Of a DNA stretch of 32,000 bases, positions 5,038 to 30,521 are shown one piece after another. The stretch is taken from the NCBI GenBank assembly GCA_963699255.1, contig OY969425.1:90001-122000 (forward strand), written 5' to 3'. A program made the position numbers and the translations under genes. Source of the stretch: an uncultured bacterium. GTDB lineage: Bacteria; Margulisbacteria; WOR-1; CAVSGV01. Below the pieces are notes generated by a model that saw nothing but the letters and a program-made list of their open reading frames with translations, was not told the DNA's origin and did no database searches. Position 1 is the first letter of the stretch; the number at the start of each line of letters is the position of its first letter.

Positions 5038-7050
5038 ATGCAAAACATCCTTGTTAGGTACCTCAAAGGCGTGGGGCCGAAACTGGCCGAAATGCTGTCA
5101 AATATCGGCGTTGAGACGGTGGATGACCTGATATATTACTTTCCCCGCGAATACGAGGACAGAAGCAACCCCGTACCCATCGCGAAACTTGTGCCCGGCA
5201 GGGAAGCTATAATAAAAGTCGAGATAGTCAAAGTGTCCGGCTCGCGCACAAAAAGGAATTTCTCGATAATAAAAAGCGTCGTCAAGGATGCTTCCGGCAG
5301 CATCAAGGTCATCTGGTTCAACCAGCCGTATCTGGTGAGGATCCTTAAACCCGGAGTTTCCCTGTTCATATCGGGGAAACTTGATAGGGACCAATATTCA
5401 AGTGAGATGCTGTTCGTCCCCCGGAACTTTGATGTGATCGGCGAACTCAACAAGAACGACCTCATAGTCCCTATATACAGCCTTACCGAAGGTATAACCC
5501 AGAAGTTCTTGAGGCGTATCATAAAGGGCGCCCTTGAGCAGCGGCTGAATGAGATCGTTGATCCCTTGCCTGACTTCATCATAAAAAAATTCAAGCTGCC
5601 TCCTCTTCACGGATCTATTTCCGCGCTCCATTTCCCTTCGGATATGGGCAAGGTTTCCGTTTCAAGGCGCCGTATCGCATTCGATGAGCTTCTTATTTTC
5701 CAGCTCGGCCTTCTTTACAGTAGAAAGCAAATTGACGGGATCGCTGGTATGTCTTTTGACCCGGAGGGTGGGATGGTAGATAAGTTCAAGAAGATCTTGC
5801 CGTTCTCATTTACAAAAGCCCAGCAAAGGGTCCTTGAGGACATTGTGTCCGACATGAGATCCAAAAAAGTAATGAACAGGCTCCTTCAGGGGGATGTGGG
5901 TTGCGGCAAGACGGTGGTCGCGCTCTATGCGATGGTCATTGCTGTTCAGAGCGGATATCAGGCAGCTATCATGGGCCCGACCGAAATACTCGCGAACCAG
6001 CATTTCAATAAGATCAAAGATCTAGTCAATGATATCGGTATCGAAGTGTTTTTGTTGACCGGGACCAAGCATGGCTTAAGGAAGGAAATGTTCGAAAAAC
6101 TCGATAAGGGAGAACCGCTGATAATCGTAGGTACTCATGCTTTGATCGAAGACCCCGTGAGGTTCGGCAAGCTGGGCCTGGTCGTGATAGATGAACAGCA
6201 CCGGTTCGGGGTTGAACAGAGAGCTAAACTGCGTCAAAAAGGGGAGAACATCGATCTGCTCGTCATGACCGCGACCCCCATCCCAAGAACGCTCGCGCTT
6301 ACATTATATGGCGACCTTGACAGGTCGGTCATCGATGAAATGCCGCCCGGAAGGACAAAGATCGTTACGAGATACGTTCGAGACAAAGAAAGGCCCAGGC
6401 TCTATGAGTTTTTAAGGGGACAGATCGCGGCCGGACGCCAGTCTTATGTCGTATGTCCCCTGGTGGAAGAATCGGAGAAGATCGATCTCAAGGCCGCGAC
6501 GGAAGAGGCGGAGGTCCTGAAAAAGACATTTCCCGGATACAGGATCGGACTTATTCACGGACGAATGAAAGGGGAGCAGAAGGACAAGGTAATGAAGGAT
6601 TTTCTTAGCGGAAAGATAAATGTCCTTGTCTCAACTACCGTGATAGAAGTGGGGATAGACGTCCCTAATTCAACCATCATGATCATCGAACACAGCGAAC
6701 GTTTCGGGCTGTCCCAGCTTCACCAGCTTCGCGGCAGGATAGGAAGAGGAACAGAGCAATCGTACTGCTTCCTGACGGGATATCCGGCCAGCGATACGGC
6801 AAAAGCGAGGATAGACGCAATGCTTCGCACGACGGACGGCTTCAAGATAGCCGAGGAGGACCTAAAACTCAGAGGCCCCGGCGAGTTTTTGGGCGTTCGC
6901 CAGTCGGGTTTGCCAAATTTCCGCGTAGCTGATATAATCAAAGATGAGGAGATCATAAGAGAAGCCAGAGAAGCGGCTTTAATGCTGATACAGCAGGGCT
7001 TTTCTCCTCAGAGTTTCAACATAAAAGTTTGGGGCAATAAGCTAGAGTGA
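5038..7050 (+). CDS. recG: ATP-dependent DNA helicase RecG
   Basis: N-terminus LKGVGPKLAEMLSNIGVETVDDLIYYFPREYEDRS. Helicase motifs GDVGCGKT and VIDEQHRFGV, plus QLRGRIGRG. Start placed at ATG 5038 (GAGG SD 8 nt upstream). The ORF is also open from GTG 4999 and ATG 5017. Confidence 0.95.
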   Translation: MQNILVRYLKGVGPKLAEMLSNIGVETVDDLIYYFPREYEDRSNPVPIAKLVPGREAIIKVEIVKVSGSRTKRNFSIIKSVVKDASGSIKVIWFNQPYLVRILKPGVSLFISGKLDRDQYSSEMLFVPRNFDVIGELNKNDLIVPIYSLTEGITQKFLRRIIKGALEQRLNEIVDPLPDFIIKKFKLPPLHGSISALHFPSDMGKVSVSRRRIAFDELLIFQLGLLYSRKQIDGIAGMSFDPEGGMVDKFKKILPFSFTKAQQRVLEDIVSDMRSKKVMNRLLQGDVGCGKTVVALYAMVIAVQSGYQAAIMGPTEILANQHFNKIKDLVNDIGIEVFLLTGTKHGLRKEMFEKLDKGEPLIIVGTHALIEDPVRFGKLGLVVIDEQHRFGVEQRAKLRQKGENIDLLVMTATPIPRTLALTLYGDLDRSVIDEMPPGRTKIVTRYVRDKERPRLYEFLRGQIAAGRQSYVVCPLVEESEKIDLKAATEEAEVLKKTFPGYRIGLIHGRMKGEQKDKVMKDFLSGKINVLVSTTVIEVGIDVPNSTIMIIEHSERFGLSQLHQLRGRIGRGTEQSYCFLTGYPASDTAKARIDAMLRTTDGFKIAEEDLKLRGPGEFLGVRQSGLPNFRVADIIKDEEIIREAREAALMLIQQGFSPQSFNIKVWGNKLE

Positions 7051-7622
7051 GAGTAATAGCCGGACTCGCAAAAGGTAAAAAGCTGCGTTATCCAAAGCTT
7101 TCGAAGGACAAGAGGCTGCGTCCGTTGACGGGAAGGGCAAAAGGGGCCCTTTTTAATATTCTTGTCAGCAAAAATCCGGACGCCAGGTTCCTTGATCTGT
7201 TCGCGGGGACGGGATCCGTCGGGATCGAGGCTCTGTCCCGCGGAGCCGGTCTTGCTATCTTTGTGGAGTTTGACCTGAAAACGGTCCAGATATTGAGAGA
7301 AAATCTCGACCTAACGGGTTTTACGGACAGGGCAGAAGTATATTGCCTTGATGTCATTAAGGCAATAAAGATAATTGATAAGGCCAAAGGCAAATTTGAC
7401 ATAATATTCATCGGGGCTCCGTACGGAAGCCCGATGCTTGAAGAAACACTTAAGGCTCTGGCGGCAGCGGATATAGCGGACAGCAAAGCTGTCGTGGTGG
7501 CCGAACACAGTGCGAGGGACAAGGTTTCGGATGAATACGGAAAGCTGGTAAAGTTCAGGGATTCCAGATACGGGGACACGGTTCTATCGTTTTATAGCCT
7601 CACCCCTAACCCCTCTCCATGA
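7047..7622 (+). CDS. rsmD: 16S rRNA (guanine966-N2)-methyltransferase RsmD family, with atypical motif IV
   Basis: MRVIAGLAKGKKL...RPLTGRAKGALFNIL. SAM motif LDLFAGTGSVGIEALSRGA. GTGA overlap with the recG stop. Conserved rsmD-coaD pairing. The last 8 codons and the stop lie inside the 97-nt repeat. Confidence 0.85.
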   Translation: MRVIAGLAKGKKLRYPKLSKDKRLRPLTGRAKGALFNILVSKNPDARFLDLFAGTGSVGIEALSRGAGLAIFVEFDLKTVQILRENLDLTGFTDRAEVYCLDVIKAIKIIDKAKGKFDIIFIGAPYGSPMLEETLKALAAADIADSKAVVVAEHSARDKVSDEYGKLVKFRDSRYGDTVLSFYSLTPNPSP

Positions 7623-7694
7623 AATGGAGAGGGGAAAAATAGGCTGAAGTTATGTTTCCCTTCTCCACAAAGTGGAGAAGGGATAGGGATGAGG
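7598..7694 (+). repeat. 97-nt structured repeat, copy 1 (terminal inverted repeat plus two internal hairpins; MITE-like or structured-RNA-like)
   Basis: CCTCACCCCTAA | CCCCTCTCCAT-gaa-ATGGAGAGGGG | 23-nt linker | CCCTTCTCCAC-aaa-GTGGAGAAGGG | ATAGGGATGAGG. It has the same length and architecture as the copy at 29694-29790. Confidence 0.85.
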
Positions 7695-7707
7695 TAGGAA
7701 GGCATAG

Positions 7708-8208
7708 ATGAAGATAGCAGTTTATCCGGGCAGTTTTGACCCGGTAACAAATGGGCATGTTGATATAGTCGAGAGAGCCGCCAAGATATTCGATCTCGTC
7801 TATGTGGCTATCATAGCCAACCCCGAGAAAACCCCTTACTTTGACATTGATGAAAGAAAAGAAATGTTGAGAGCCGCTGTCCGCCATATAAAAAAAGCAA
7901 AGGTTGACAGTTTCAATGGCCTTCTTGTTGATTATGCCGCATCAAAAAGGGCATGCTCGATAGTAAGAGGCCTCAGGGCGGTATCTGATTTTGACTATGA
8001 ATTCCAGATGGCCCTTACGAACCTGAGGATGTGTCCCGAAATAGAGACGATCTTCATCATGACCGACTATAAATACTCGTATCTCAGTTCAAGTCTGGTG
8101 AAACAGATCGCTTCCCTCGGGGGAAATGTTTCAGGGCTTGTTCCAAAGACTGTATTAAATAAGCTGAAAAAAACTCCGGCGCTATACCGGGGCTTGTCCC
8201 GACCGTAG
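7708..8208 (+). CDS. coaD: Phosphopantetheine adenylyltransferase
   Basis: MKIAVYPGSFDPVTNGHVDIVERA (T/HxGH nucleotidyltransferase motif), 166 aa. An SD-like GAGGTAGGAAGG lies upstream. Confidence 0.95.
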   Translation: MKIAVYPGSFDPVTNGHVDIVERAAKIFDLVYVAIIANPEKTPYFDIDERKEMLRAAVRHIKKAKVDSFNGLLVDYAASKRACSIVRGLRAVSDFDYEFQMALTNLRMCPEIETIFIMTDYKYSYLSSSLVKQIASLGGNVSGLVPKTVLNKLKKTPALYRGLSRP

Positions 8209-27933: not shown

Positions 27934-28796
27934 AAATCCTTCTGATAGGCGCGGACGGGCAGCTAGGCACGGACATTCAAAAAGTGATAGACAGATCAGA
28001 ACTTATCCCTCTTACTATTGCTGACATTGATGTTACAAAAAAAGAAAGCATTTCGTCGGTTATCGGCAGGCATAAACCGGATATCGTTATCAACACATCC
28101 GCGTACCACAGGGTGGATGATTGTGAGGACAATGATGAACTTGCTTTCGCGGTCAATGCCATTGGCGTGAAGAACCTCTGTCTGTCCTGCAGGGAAAATG
28201 ATGCCGCGCTGGTCCATATAAGCACGGATTATGTTTTTGACGGCAGGAAGGGCAAGCCGTATTTCGAAACGGATTGTCCGAATCCCGGCACCGTATACGG
28301 CATTTCAAAGCTCGCGGGCGAGCTTTATGTGAGATACATGGTGAAGAAATATTTTCTTATCAGGTCATGTGGACTGTTCGGAGTGGCAGGATGCCTCGGC
28401 AAAGGCGGAGGGAATTTTATCGAGTCCATGCTCAAGCTTGGAAAAGAAAAGCCCGTATTAAGGGTCGTCGCCGACCAGATAGTCGGACCTACATATACCC
28501 TGGACCTGGCGAGCAAGATCAATGACCTTATCAGGACAGAATACTATGGCCTTTATCATGTCACAAATAAAGGAAAGTGCAGCTGGTATGACTTCGCGAA
28601 AAAAATATTCGAGTTGACCGGCACAAGAGTGAAGATCGAAAAGGCGACCACGTCGGAGTTCAAAGCAAAAGCCACAAGGCCGGCATATTCGGTCCTTGAG
28701 CACGGGAGTTTGAAGAAGGTCGGCCTTGATGACATGCGCACCTGGGATAAGGCGCTGGAAGCGTATCTCGAAGAAAAGAAACGGATAAATGGTTGA
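27930..28796 (+). CDS. rfbD: dTDP-4-dehydrorhamnose reductase
   Basis: MKILLIGADGQLGTDI...PDIVINTSAYHRVDDCE...LVHISTDYVFDG...YGISKLAGE...VADQIVGPTYTLDLA...CSWYDFAKKIF...RPAYSVL. ATG 27930 forms an ATGA overlap with the upstream SDR gene. Confidence 0.9.
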   Translation: MKILLIGADGQLGTDIQKVIDRSELIPLTIADIDVTKKESISSVIGRHKPDIVINTSAYHRVDDCEDNDELAFAVNAIGVKNLCLSCRENDAALVHISTDYVFDGRKGKPYFETDCPNPGTVYGISKLAGELYVRYMVKKYFLIRSCGLFGVAGCLGKGGGNFIESMLKLGKEKPVLRVVADQIVGPTYTLDLASKINDLIRTEYYGLYHVTNKGKCSWYDFAKKIFELTGTRVKIEKATTSEFKAKATRPAYSVLEHGSLKKVGLDDMRTWDKALEAYLEEKKRING

Positions 28797-29679: not shown

Positions 29680-29693
29680 AAATGATATAATAA

Positions 29694-29790
29694 CCTCACT
29701 TCTAGCCTCTCTCCTATAAATAGGAGAGAGGAAATGTAACTATAGTTTTGCTTCCCTTCTCCTAATATAGGAGAAGGGCTAGGGATGAGG
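29694..29790 (+). repeat. 97-nt structured repeat, copy 2
   Basis: CCTCACTTCTAG | CCTCTCTCCTA-taaa-TAGGAGAGAGG | linker | CCCTTCTCCTA-ata-TAGGAGAAGGG | CTAGGGATGAGG. It has the same length, orientation and architecture as copy 1 and ends 11 nt before the rfbA ATG. Confidence 0.85.
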
Positions 29791-29801: not shown

Positions 29802-30521
29802 ATGAAAGGCGTCATACTGGCTGGCGGGACGGGTTCAAGACTGTATCCTTTGACAAAAGTGACCAACAAACATCTTCTGCCTGTTGCCAGAAAGCCGATG
29901 ATATACCATCCGATCGAGAAACTGAAACAGGCCGGCATCGACGAGATCCTGATCGTGACGGGTGTAGAGCACATGGGGGATGTGGTGACGCTTCTGGGAA
30001 GCGGAAAGGAATTCGGCTGCAGGTTCACATATAAGGTGCAGGATGAAGCAGGAGGGATCGCACAGGCGCTGGGCATTGCGGAACATTTCTCTAACGGGGA
30101 AAAGATCCTGGTTATACTGGGAGATAATATTTTTGAGGAAGATCTATCGAAGATCGTATCTAAATTCGAGGGACAATCGTCCGGAGCAAAGCTGTTACTG
30201 AAAGAAGTAAAAGATCCGAACAGGTTCGGAGTCGCTGAGATCAAGGGGGATAAGATAGTCGGGATCGAGGAAAAGCCCAAAAAACCGAAAAGCAACCTGA
30301 TAGTGACAGGCATATACATGTACAACACCGACGTTTTCAAGATCATTAGAAAGCTAAGACCATCCACAAGGGGAGAACTGGAAATAACCGATGTGAACAA
30401 TGAATACATAAAACGCGGAGAAATAACGTATGAGATAATGCGGGGTTGGTGGACCGACGCGGGGACGTTTGAAACTCTTGAGCTGGCAAGCAGACTTGTT
30501 GAAGGGCGAGCGGCAAAGTGA
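29802..30521 (+). CDS. rfbA: Glucose-1-phosphate thymidylyltransferase (short form)
   Basis: MKGVILAGGTGSRLYPLTKVTNKHLLPVARKPMIYHPIEKL...QDEAGGIAQAL...LGDNIF...RFGVAE...EEKPKKPKSNL. Start at ATG 29802 (GGGAGG SD); the track ORF begins at GTG 29790 inside the repeat. Confidence 0.85.
   Translation: MKGVILAGGTGSRLYPLTKVTNKHLLPVARKPMIYHPIEKLKQAGIDEILIVTGVEHMGDVVTLLGSGKEFGCRFTYKVQDEAGGIAQALGIAEHFSNGEKILVILGDNIFEEDLSKIVSKFEGQSSGAKLLLKEVKDPNRFGVAEIKGDKIVGIEEKPKKPKSNLIVTGIYMYNTDVFKIIRKLRPSTRGELEITDVNNEYIKRGEITYEIMRGWWTDAGTFETLELASRLVEGRAAK

Follow-up and report, generated by a model that had tools for sequence, protein, structure and literature searches.

The stretch of DNA analysed here, called the window, comprises 32,000 nucleotides (positions 90001-122000 of the single 1.77-Mb contig OY969425.1) from an uncultured bacterium of the WOR-1 lineage of Margulisbacteria, whose genome is about 93% coding. 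Within it, rsmD is followed by coaD, and a two-hairpin repeat of 97 bp, referred to as copy 1 of the Type A repeat, lies at their junction (Table 1). Copy 1 is composed of two terminal blocks of 12 nt each, CCTCACCCCTAA (7598-7609) and ATAGGGATGAGG (7683-7694), which enclose two perfect 11-bp hairpins (7610-7634 and 7658-7682) and a linker of 23 nt. An earlier reading, made from the sequence alone, had described this layout, and all of its parts were found again at the same positions. The same holds for the 13 nt that separate the end of the element from the coaD ATG at 7708, in which TAGGAAGG lies, and for the claim that the element encodes the end of rsmD: the open reading frame (ORF) in the window ends in ...SFYSLTPNPSP, and the PF03602 model stops at residue 183 of 191, so that the LTPNPSP tail and the TGA behind it lie beyond the family domain.

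The rsmD gene was located in the genomes of 30 relatives, whose kinship ranges from a shared family to a shared class. In all of the 18 loci that hold both genes, 3-45 nt separate the end of rsmD from the start of coaD, and neither the element nor the LTPNPSP tail was found at any of these 18. This comparison of rsmD 3' ends, which the sequence-only reading had proposed, revealed empty junctions and no ortholog that natively carries the tail. RsmD orthologs terminate in SFY followed by 3-6 residues, with junctions such as ..SFYSLGG* ttagATG and ..SFYLIGG* taaATG; in the three closest relatives with a readable junction, the rsmD stop directly abuts the coaD ATG. When the flanks of copy 1 are joined, they read tat agt agg aag gca tag ATG, which restores an in-frame SFYSRKA* ending and the exact 15-nt length found after the conserved TAT codon in the loci L002-L004. 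The aligned gene ends show copy 1 to be a lineage-specific insertion in the last codons of rsmD, between ..TATAG and TAGGAAGG...

Since the joined flanks reproduce the length of the orthologs, entry without a target duplication is the most likely course. The three bases TAG present on both flanks of copy 1 were considered as a target duplication but are better attributed to chance, given that the ortholog length is matched without any duplication. Nor is a target duplication shared by the flanks of the 22 family copies described below.

By this insertion, the last four codons and the stop of rsmD were exchanged for seven element codons and a TGA, and the ribosome-binding site of coaD was left intact. 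The remnant at 7695-7707 contains the coaD Shine-Dalgarno sequence AGGAAGG and the former rsmD stop TAG, which is now stranded beside the coaD ATG. The effect on the host genes is probably near neutral: the stop/start coupling of rsmD and coaD would be lost, and the operon mRNA would gain a stable stem-loop.

As a separate observation, motif IV of RsmD reads GAPY here, not DPPY (window 7413-7424). GAPY (FIGAPYG or close) is also present in the relatives whose RsmD tail was translated (loci L002-L020), which makes it a trait of the class and not a local defect.

Table 1. Features of the rsmD-coaD and rmlA regions and of a second repeat family
Feature	Position	Strand	Evidence or remark
Copy 1, two-hairpin (Type A) repeat, 97-bp insertion	7598..7694		nhmmer E = 8e-23; absent at same junction in 18 relatives
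Left triplex module of copy 1	7598..7634	-	9/9 Watson-Crick pairs, 9/9 purine-motif triads
Linker between modules, 23 nt	7635..7657		Weakly conserved among copies; mean pairwise identity 0.58 vs 0.87-0.93 in third blocks
Right triplex module of copy 1	7658..7694	+	9/9 pairs, 9/9 triads
rsmD (PF03602)	7047..7622	+	Codons 7599-7619 (LTPNPSP) and TGA 7620-7622 are element sequence
Fossil of old rsmD end (..agg aag gca tag)	7695..7707	+	Joined flanks equal the 15-nt length of L002-L004
coaD (PF01467)	7708..8208	+	ORF and Pfam domain
Copy 2 of Type A	29694..29790		Modules 29694-29731 (minus) and 29754-29790 (plus)
Extended -10-like TGATATAAT just upstream of copy 2	29683..29691	+	TG(G/A)TATAAT conserved in five sister genomes; putative promoter
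rmlD-like stop / glycosyltransferase start overlap, empty here	28789..28796	+	Occupied in G005 (L206)
Second triplex-rule family, G000 coordinates	67499, 69813, 181069, 225193, 549491, 553253, 599807, 604824, 621312, 732796, 1623176		Outside the window

The terminal blocks and the triplex rule

Each half of copy 1 can be read as a module of three blocks. The left module runs CCCCTCTCC / loop / GGAGAGGGG / TTA / GGGGTGAGG on the minus (G-rich) strand, and the right module runs CCCTTCTCC / loop / GGAGAAGGG / ATA / GGGATGAGG. In this arrangement, two end modules stand in inverted order around a short linker, and each consists of a polypyrimidine/polypurine hairpin of 9-11 bp and, about 3 nt further on, a block of 9 nt that is the mirror image of the purine arm. 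When single-stranded, the G-rich strand at each 3' end could form a purine-motif intrastrand triplex.

A scan of the genome for the triads G*G-C, A*A-T and T*A-T retrieved 37 loci, whereas five genomes simulated with a Markov-2 model gave 0. A third block that is a perfect mirror accompanies 25 of the 122 purine/pyrimidine hairpins, versus 2 in a direct-repeat control. The third block agrees with its own hairpin at 8.8 of 9 positions and with the hairpin of the opposite end at 6.0 of 9, cassettes with unrelated ends being included in these figures. In elements whose two hairpins differ, each terminal block matches its own hairpin and mismatches the other terminal block, and some cassettes carry wholly unrelated modules at their two ends. 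Copy 1 itself shows the pattern, as a G-to-A change in the stem of the right module is mirrored by a G-to-A change in its third block. Copy 2 differs from copy 1 by compensatory changes in both hairpins, and it scores 9/9 pairs and 8-9/9 triads.

Among the aligned copies, the stems and third blocks are conserved and the loops and linkers vary, the terminal blocks being 87-93% identical and the loops and linker 38-58%. Because the terminal blocks follow their own hairpin and not the opposite repeat, the so-called terminal inverted repeats are, as far as the aligned copies tell, third strands, and the conserved rule is the triplex rule. This argues for a fold at the DNA level rather than for an RNA regulator or a plain miniature inverted-repeat transposable element (MITE). 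Where the loop between hairpin and third block is expanded, the expansion itself forms a small hairpin. A G/C-rich hairpin such as GGCCGAAGGCC is seen in expanded loops at G000 665725-665845, in G004 (L157 and L223) and in G001 (L229), and it would hold the third block beside the stem.

The exact module is present in at least 120 stretches from Planctomycetota, Chloroflexota, Bacteroidota, Cyanobacteria, Xanthomonas, Acidobacteriota, candidate phyla and others. Among the related genomes it occurs in 18 of 31, and the reversed control pattern in none of the 31. Outward third blocks are the commoner arrangement in the cross-phylum sample (12 of 20 close pairs). A second, unrelated family that obeys the triplex rule, TCTCCCCCT-TAGTA-AGGGGGAGA-TAC-AGAGGGGGT, has 11 copies, nearly all with 9/9 triads, and its module type adjoins DUF559 genes in relatives (L197, L212 and L217).

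The region of the element folds as RNA with -58.9 kcal/mol, versus -32.5 +/- 3.8 in shuffled sequences (z = -6.9); like the family copies and the triplex-rule loci of the genome, this goes beyond chance. The three-way junction suggested by the earlier reading was not the RNA minimum, which is a single long hairpin (-59.0), the junction lying 4.7 kcal/mol higher. With DNA parameters, the junction-like fold becomes the minimum. The Shine-Dalgarno sequence of coaD stays unpaired in the predicted folds. At permissive thresholds, the Rfam search gave no family match, only sub-threshold look-alikes of microRNA hairpins, and a scan for promoters and terminators gave nothing in or next to copy 1.

Relation to BoxC repeats and copies in the genome

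BoxC, PIT and triplex-motif (TM) repeats have, to our knowledge, been recorded in E. coli and hundreds of other genomes from the 1990s onward, with no known origin, enzyme or function; those named BoxC and PIT were reportedly treated by Bergler (1992) and by Hoyne and Maher (2000, 2002). In E. coli, the BoxC / PIT / TM-ECO repeat presents a C-rich arm and its G-rich complement, followed after a loop of 3 nt (TTA or CCG) by another G-rich block, and it folds in vitro as a purine-motif intrastrand triplex (PMC4666352). The K-12 genome has 23 copies, always intergenic and sometimes in inverted pairs, with no function known and no mobility genes around them (PMC4666352). In this class, the first loop has 3-6 nt (ITxF allows 1-6) and the second has 3 nt (PMC4666352).

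The modules of copy 1 share with these repeats the three 9-nt blocks (C-rich arm, complementary G-rich arm and second G-rich mirror block), a second loop of 3 nt, which in the left module is the TTA of E. coli type A, and two A-triads in T-then-A order. They also share the occurrence as multiple copies outside genes, in either orientation and sometimes as inverted pairs, with no known function. The second loops found here are TTA, ATA and CTA; the first loop has 7 nt when stems of 9 bp are counted and 3 nt with the 11 bp that are in fact paired. The complete pairs and triads of both modules of copy 1, together with a dispersal outside coding regions and without strand bias, place them in the triplex-motif class. 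Therefore, the description of such repeats as uncharacterised could not be maintained, since the module is a known BoxC / PIT / TM intrastrand-triplex repeat (PMC4666352).

Three differences separate the present element from the E. coli form. The register is shifted by one G, with GGAGAGGGG/GGGGTGAGG here and GGGAGAGGG/GGGTGAGGG in E. coli. In addition, the third blocks point outward here and act as terminal repeats, whereas the E. coli pairs point inward according to the coordinates and strands in Table 1 of Holder et al. (PMC4666352). Finally, copy 1 is linked to DUF559 cassettes, and its insertion is dated, the corresponding sites of relatives being empty; in the literature search, neither a dated insertion with empty sites nor a tie to DUF559 was reported for BoxC-type repeats. 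The strict TM-ECO pattern, CCCTCNCCC N3-6 GGGNGAGGG N3 GGGNGAGGG, has zero matches in the genome because the register differs by one G. With one mismatch allowed per block, it finds a single module, at 1005896-1005928, which abuts the DUF559 gene.

Then, we propose that copy 1 is very probably a non-autonomous, gene-less member of the BoxC / PIT / triplex-motif class, that is, a foldable selfish DNA repeat. The kind of repeat is known though still unexplained, and here, in an uncultivated lineage, it takes the form of a doublet that has no gene and whose third strands point outward.

The whole-genome search with nhmmer profiles, a check suggested from the sequence alone, yielded about 22 copies in mixed orientation. 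The two-hairpin Type A (about 97 nt) has 8 copies, and Type B, with one module, has 14 copies and a fragment. Type B is a single module with a conserved arm that contains AGTAGATTATGA and with a terminal GGGGTGAGG; this arm has no match to the DUF559 cassettes examined. In two Type B examples (G000 249161-249249 and 1554676-1554765), the internal motif is AGTAGATTATGA and the terminal one is AAACTTTGGGGTGAGG. The Type A copies are about 70-80% alike, and perfect stems are kept in 4 of the 8. No replication-strand bias of the modules was seen, single modules being divided 6 vs 9 (first family) and 3 vs 8 (second family) between the two templates, as tallied by hand; the GC skew places the origin near 1.44 Mb and the terminus near 0.51 Mb.

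All 22 copies lie between ORFs or over ORF ends. Several supply stop codons, namely to rsmD, to the genes left of 1389593 and 777027, and to the DUF559 gene. About half of the copies end less than 20 nt from a start codon, directly 5' of the Shine-Dalgarno sequence; this position is explained by compact operons, which tolerate an insertion only in the few bases between a stop and a Shine-Dalgarno sequence.

Full-length Type A and Type B copies are present at other sites in sister genera. At the 1470215 and rmlA junctions, G004 has a Type A copy in the opposite orientation, and G002 and G003 are empty; the 1470215 junction is also empty in G005, and the 1389593 junction holds a one-hairpin version in G001. 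The same junctions have been occupied independently and repeatedly in different genera, in some cases by unrelated repeats. For the junctions 853001, 1470215, rmlA and 1389593, the divergence from the relatives is too high for exact insertion points to be given.

Copy 2 has the same orientation as copy 1 and lies 11 nt ahead of the rmlA-like ATG at 29802. If the -10-like sequence just upstream of it is a promoter, copy 2 would lie in the 5' leader of rmlA. The stretch from this -10-like sequence to the Shine-Dalgarno sequence was also compared among genera (L220-L224). The repeat in it differs in almost every genus: Type A copies in one or the other orientation, bulged hairpins and a low-complexity word palindrome occur, and elsewhere the stretch is empty.

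DUF559 cassettes with the same ends

The pair of ends found in copy 1 also encloses, in a sister genus, a gene for a DUF559 nuclease (Vsr-like, PD-(D/E)xK), and such cassettes insert likewise. The cassette L189 of G004, the genome from this sister genus, opens with the identical 21-nt left end of copy 1, and its right end equals the module of copy 2 except for the short loop that precedes the third block. The 30 DUF559 loci of relatives, 94 kb in total, contain 28 modules, whereas the control loci, 64 kb in total, contain 0. The gene is exactly bracketed in 8 of these 30 loci, in cassettes of 414-507 bp.

A cassette of 485 bp with triplex-module ends occupies exactly the rmlD/glycosyltransferase junction of G005 (L206, 1443-1927), and no target duplication accompanies this insertion. 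The rmlD product ends there in ..KKQLTP*, with an LTP* tail, and the terminal GGGGTGAG lies 8 nt before the next ATG; its GGTGAGG is the sole Shine-Dalgarno-like sequence of the glycosyltransferase gene.

When loci were picked by the module pattern alone, 8 of 120 carried a DUF559 ORF, always beside or between modules, and these ORFs are often read through in frame with a large host gene. In other phyla (L029, L038, L056, L098 and L109), module-ended DUF559 genes lie inside stop-free frames of 530-1190 residues, and translation of large host genes appears to pass through these cassettes in frame. The DUF559 tree groups the genes flanked by one module type, irrespective of host family, in a clade with good support. 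The ycjD gene of E. coli K-12 carries the DUF559 annotation; its stop is covered by a BoxC-like hairpin, and the TM number 9 of Holder is 170 nt away. The genome of the window has a single DUF559 gene (1005586-1005900), and its tail runs on into an element of this kind, 72 nt long, with a module in the register of E. coli.

These shared ends suggest that the 97-nt element is a gene-less form of a DUF559 cassette, either an internally deleted derivative or a form never invaded. That a cognate DUF559 nuclease, recognising the folded single-stranded ends, moves or maintains the element is put forward with reserve, as an idea that is less likely than not. A broader proposal is that DUF559 (Vsr-like) cassettes with triplex-forming ends constitute an undescribed class of mobile elements, whose ends are recognised as folded single-stranded DNA, and that the orphan BoxC/PIT/TM repeats of E. 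coli, cyanobacteria and numerous further phyla, as well as the 97-nt element, are its non-autonomous derivatives. This proposal is possible but, on balance, doubtful.

Several observations weigh against the main interpretation of the element, from the mode of entry of copy 1 to the role of the nuclease. The match in length from which entry without duplication is deduced involves only three relatives, all of other genera. The divergence among the Type A copies of this genome gives no sign of recent activity in the alignments. In double-stranded DNA and in vivo, a triplex was not found by Holder et al. (PMC4666352). The sole DUF559 gene of this genome is an old resident in conserved synteny, and its ends are of the E. 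coli type and thus of another module type. The cognate cassette for the Type A ends was seen only in G004, and the Type A copies here are probably orphans. Across 31 relatives, DUF559 and strict modules show no association (13/5/8/5 table), which speaks against a strict dependence: DUF559 is present without a strict module in 8 genomes, and two nearly complete genomes, G010 with 15 modules and G021 with 7, have no DUF559 match. The literature search retrieved no paper that connects DUF559 to these repeats. Moreover, we know of no DUF559 protein for which cleavage, binding or movement has been demonstrated.

Alternative explanations and significance

The alternative that survives best accepts the doublets as such and assigns their spread to host replication or repair, or to an enzyme not yet known, so that DUF559 would be a passenger or a homing-type invader of the linker and the 97-nt element its empty target. 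It is a tentative but possible account. It agrees with the many modules in the DUF559-less genomes G010 and G021, with the frequency of solo modules and one-sided associations, with the lack of the cognate cassette in this genome, and with the absence of mobility genes around the E. coli copies (PMC4666352). Against it stand the co-inheritance of gene and ends as units across host families, the whole cassettes that are discrete insertions at junctions empty elsewhere, and the very strong enrichment of DUF559 in the module-only sample. These three points do not separate a driver from an invader, and the data as a whole do not separate DUF559 as driver, as passenger or as homing-type invader.

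A structured RNA that acts in cis is very improbable. Under this explanation, a three-way junction or long hairpin would have been selected because it controls the downstream cistron, at the level of translation or of stability, for instance by offering ribosomes a standby or decoy site. The very stable fold, with the three-way junction close above the minimum, the position of about half of the copies directly 5' of a Shine-Dalgarno sequence, and the arms, which are Shine-Dalgarno-like and anti-Shine-Dalgarno-like, speak for it. Likewise, the terminal GGTGAGG is the sole Shine-Dalgarno-like sequence at a few copies (853001 and 1239300), as it is at the G005 glycosyltransferase. However, the absence of the element from the junction in 18 of 18 relatives means that coaD does not need it. 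The copies occur in both orientations relative to genes (about 13 sense vs 7 antisense, not significant), in unrelated contexts, and in some cases at convergent gene ends or behind terminators, and the same junctions hold unrelated repeats in other genera. The unpaired coaD Shine-Dalgarno sequence in the predicted folds and the lack of an Rfam match also oppose it, and in a genome that is 93% coding any tolerated insertion is forced between a stop codon and a Shine-Dalgarno sequence. Holder et al. (2015) cite evidence against the formation of purine-motif triplexes in RNA (PMC4666352). As this triplex is reportedly absent in RNA, the conserved mirror third block suits DNA and the constraint points to single-stranded DNA. 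The action of a three-way-junction RNA on coaD, offered in the sequence-only reading, thus found no support in the empty junctions, the mixed orientations or the DNA-type constraint.

In other bacteria, host effects of such repeats are side effects. The Correia repeats of Neisseria, ERIC of enterobacteria and RPE of Rickettsia are MITEs, foldable repeats of about 100-150 bp that lie in operons and at gene ends and are co-transcribed with their neighbours. They can supply stops, Shine-Dalgarno sequences and protein tails, and RPEs are read in frame. They have true terminal inverted repeats, Correia has a TA duplication, and none has a third block that obeys the triplex rule. The present element is set apart from them by description only, with no sequence relation.

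A REP/REPIN-type doublet, mobilised by the single IS200-like Y1 transposase of the genome in the manner of a RAYT, is a shade less credible still. In REP, BIME and REPIN-RAYT systems, short palindromic units likewise occur, alone or paired as inverted doublets able to form a single long hairpin; they lie between genes, have no target duplication and are thought to act as single-stranded DNA. The doublet of two inverted hairpin units, the insertion without target duplication and the one PF01797 gene of the genome (1290815-1291165) agree with this explanation. On the other hand, REPs are without a third mirror block, no conserved GTAG-type head is present here, and modules do not flank the Y1 gene, from which the closest family copy is more than 30 kb away. 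Between the modules of relatives and of other phyla, the gene is DUF559 and not Y1. The surroundings of the Y1 gene (L021) include a GAACCGCGAC..GTCGCAGGTTC hairpin downstream, and similar hairpins are found at G001 and G005 junctions; they fit a separate REP-like family.

IS200/IS605, which are single-strand transposons, and the gene-less PATE derived from them also offer a parallel, as their ends are set by subterminal hairpins, target duplications are absent and a small autonomous form is outnumbered by gene-less derivatives. Their enzyme is an HUH Y1 transposase and their hairpins are on one strand only, whereas by description the present system has a gene for a PD-(D/E)xK nuclease and a G-rich module at the 3' end of each strand.

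Least credible of all is a MITE in the classical sense, left over from an insertion sequence by internal deletion and acted on by a DDE transposase that recognises its terminal inverted repeats as duplex DNA. The small, multi-copy, discrete insertion and its imperfect 12-nt terminal inverted repeats suit it, as do the right flanks, of which 15 of 22 start with T and 8 of 22 with TA, but no consistent target duplication is seen (at rsmD, at the flanks of the 22 copies or at the G005 cassette), the terminal blocks track their own hairpin at the cost of complementarity with the other end, cassettes may have unrelated ends, no module pair in the genome is spaced widely enough for a transposase gene, and the gene found between such ends is DUF559. 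The earlier suggestion of a MITE-like insertion that replaced the native rsmD stop stands as to the insertion and the replaced stop, as the 18 empty junctions indicate; its label fits loosely, since a clear target duplication is lacking, each end follows its own hairpin, and the associated gene encodes a nuclease and not a transposase.

Thus, the reading of copy 1 as a gene-less, foldable repeat of the BoxC / PIT / triplex-motif class is retained. The locus is an unusually clean case, which joins a dated insertion, empty sites in many relatives, third blocks that covary in cis and a DUF559 cassette in a sister genus, and it opens an old descriptive puzzle to experiment. The covariation of the third blocks with their own hairpins argues for selection on the triplex rule itself. 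For annotation, such repeats rewrite gene ends, as they provide stops, Shine-Dalgarno-like sequences and protein tails (LTPNPSP or LTP, for example) and uncouple stop and start codons in compact operons. If the proposal on DUF559 cassettes is true, an origin would be given to a repeat family that has had no known origin since 1992.

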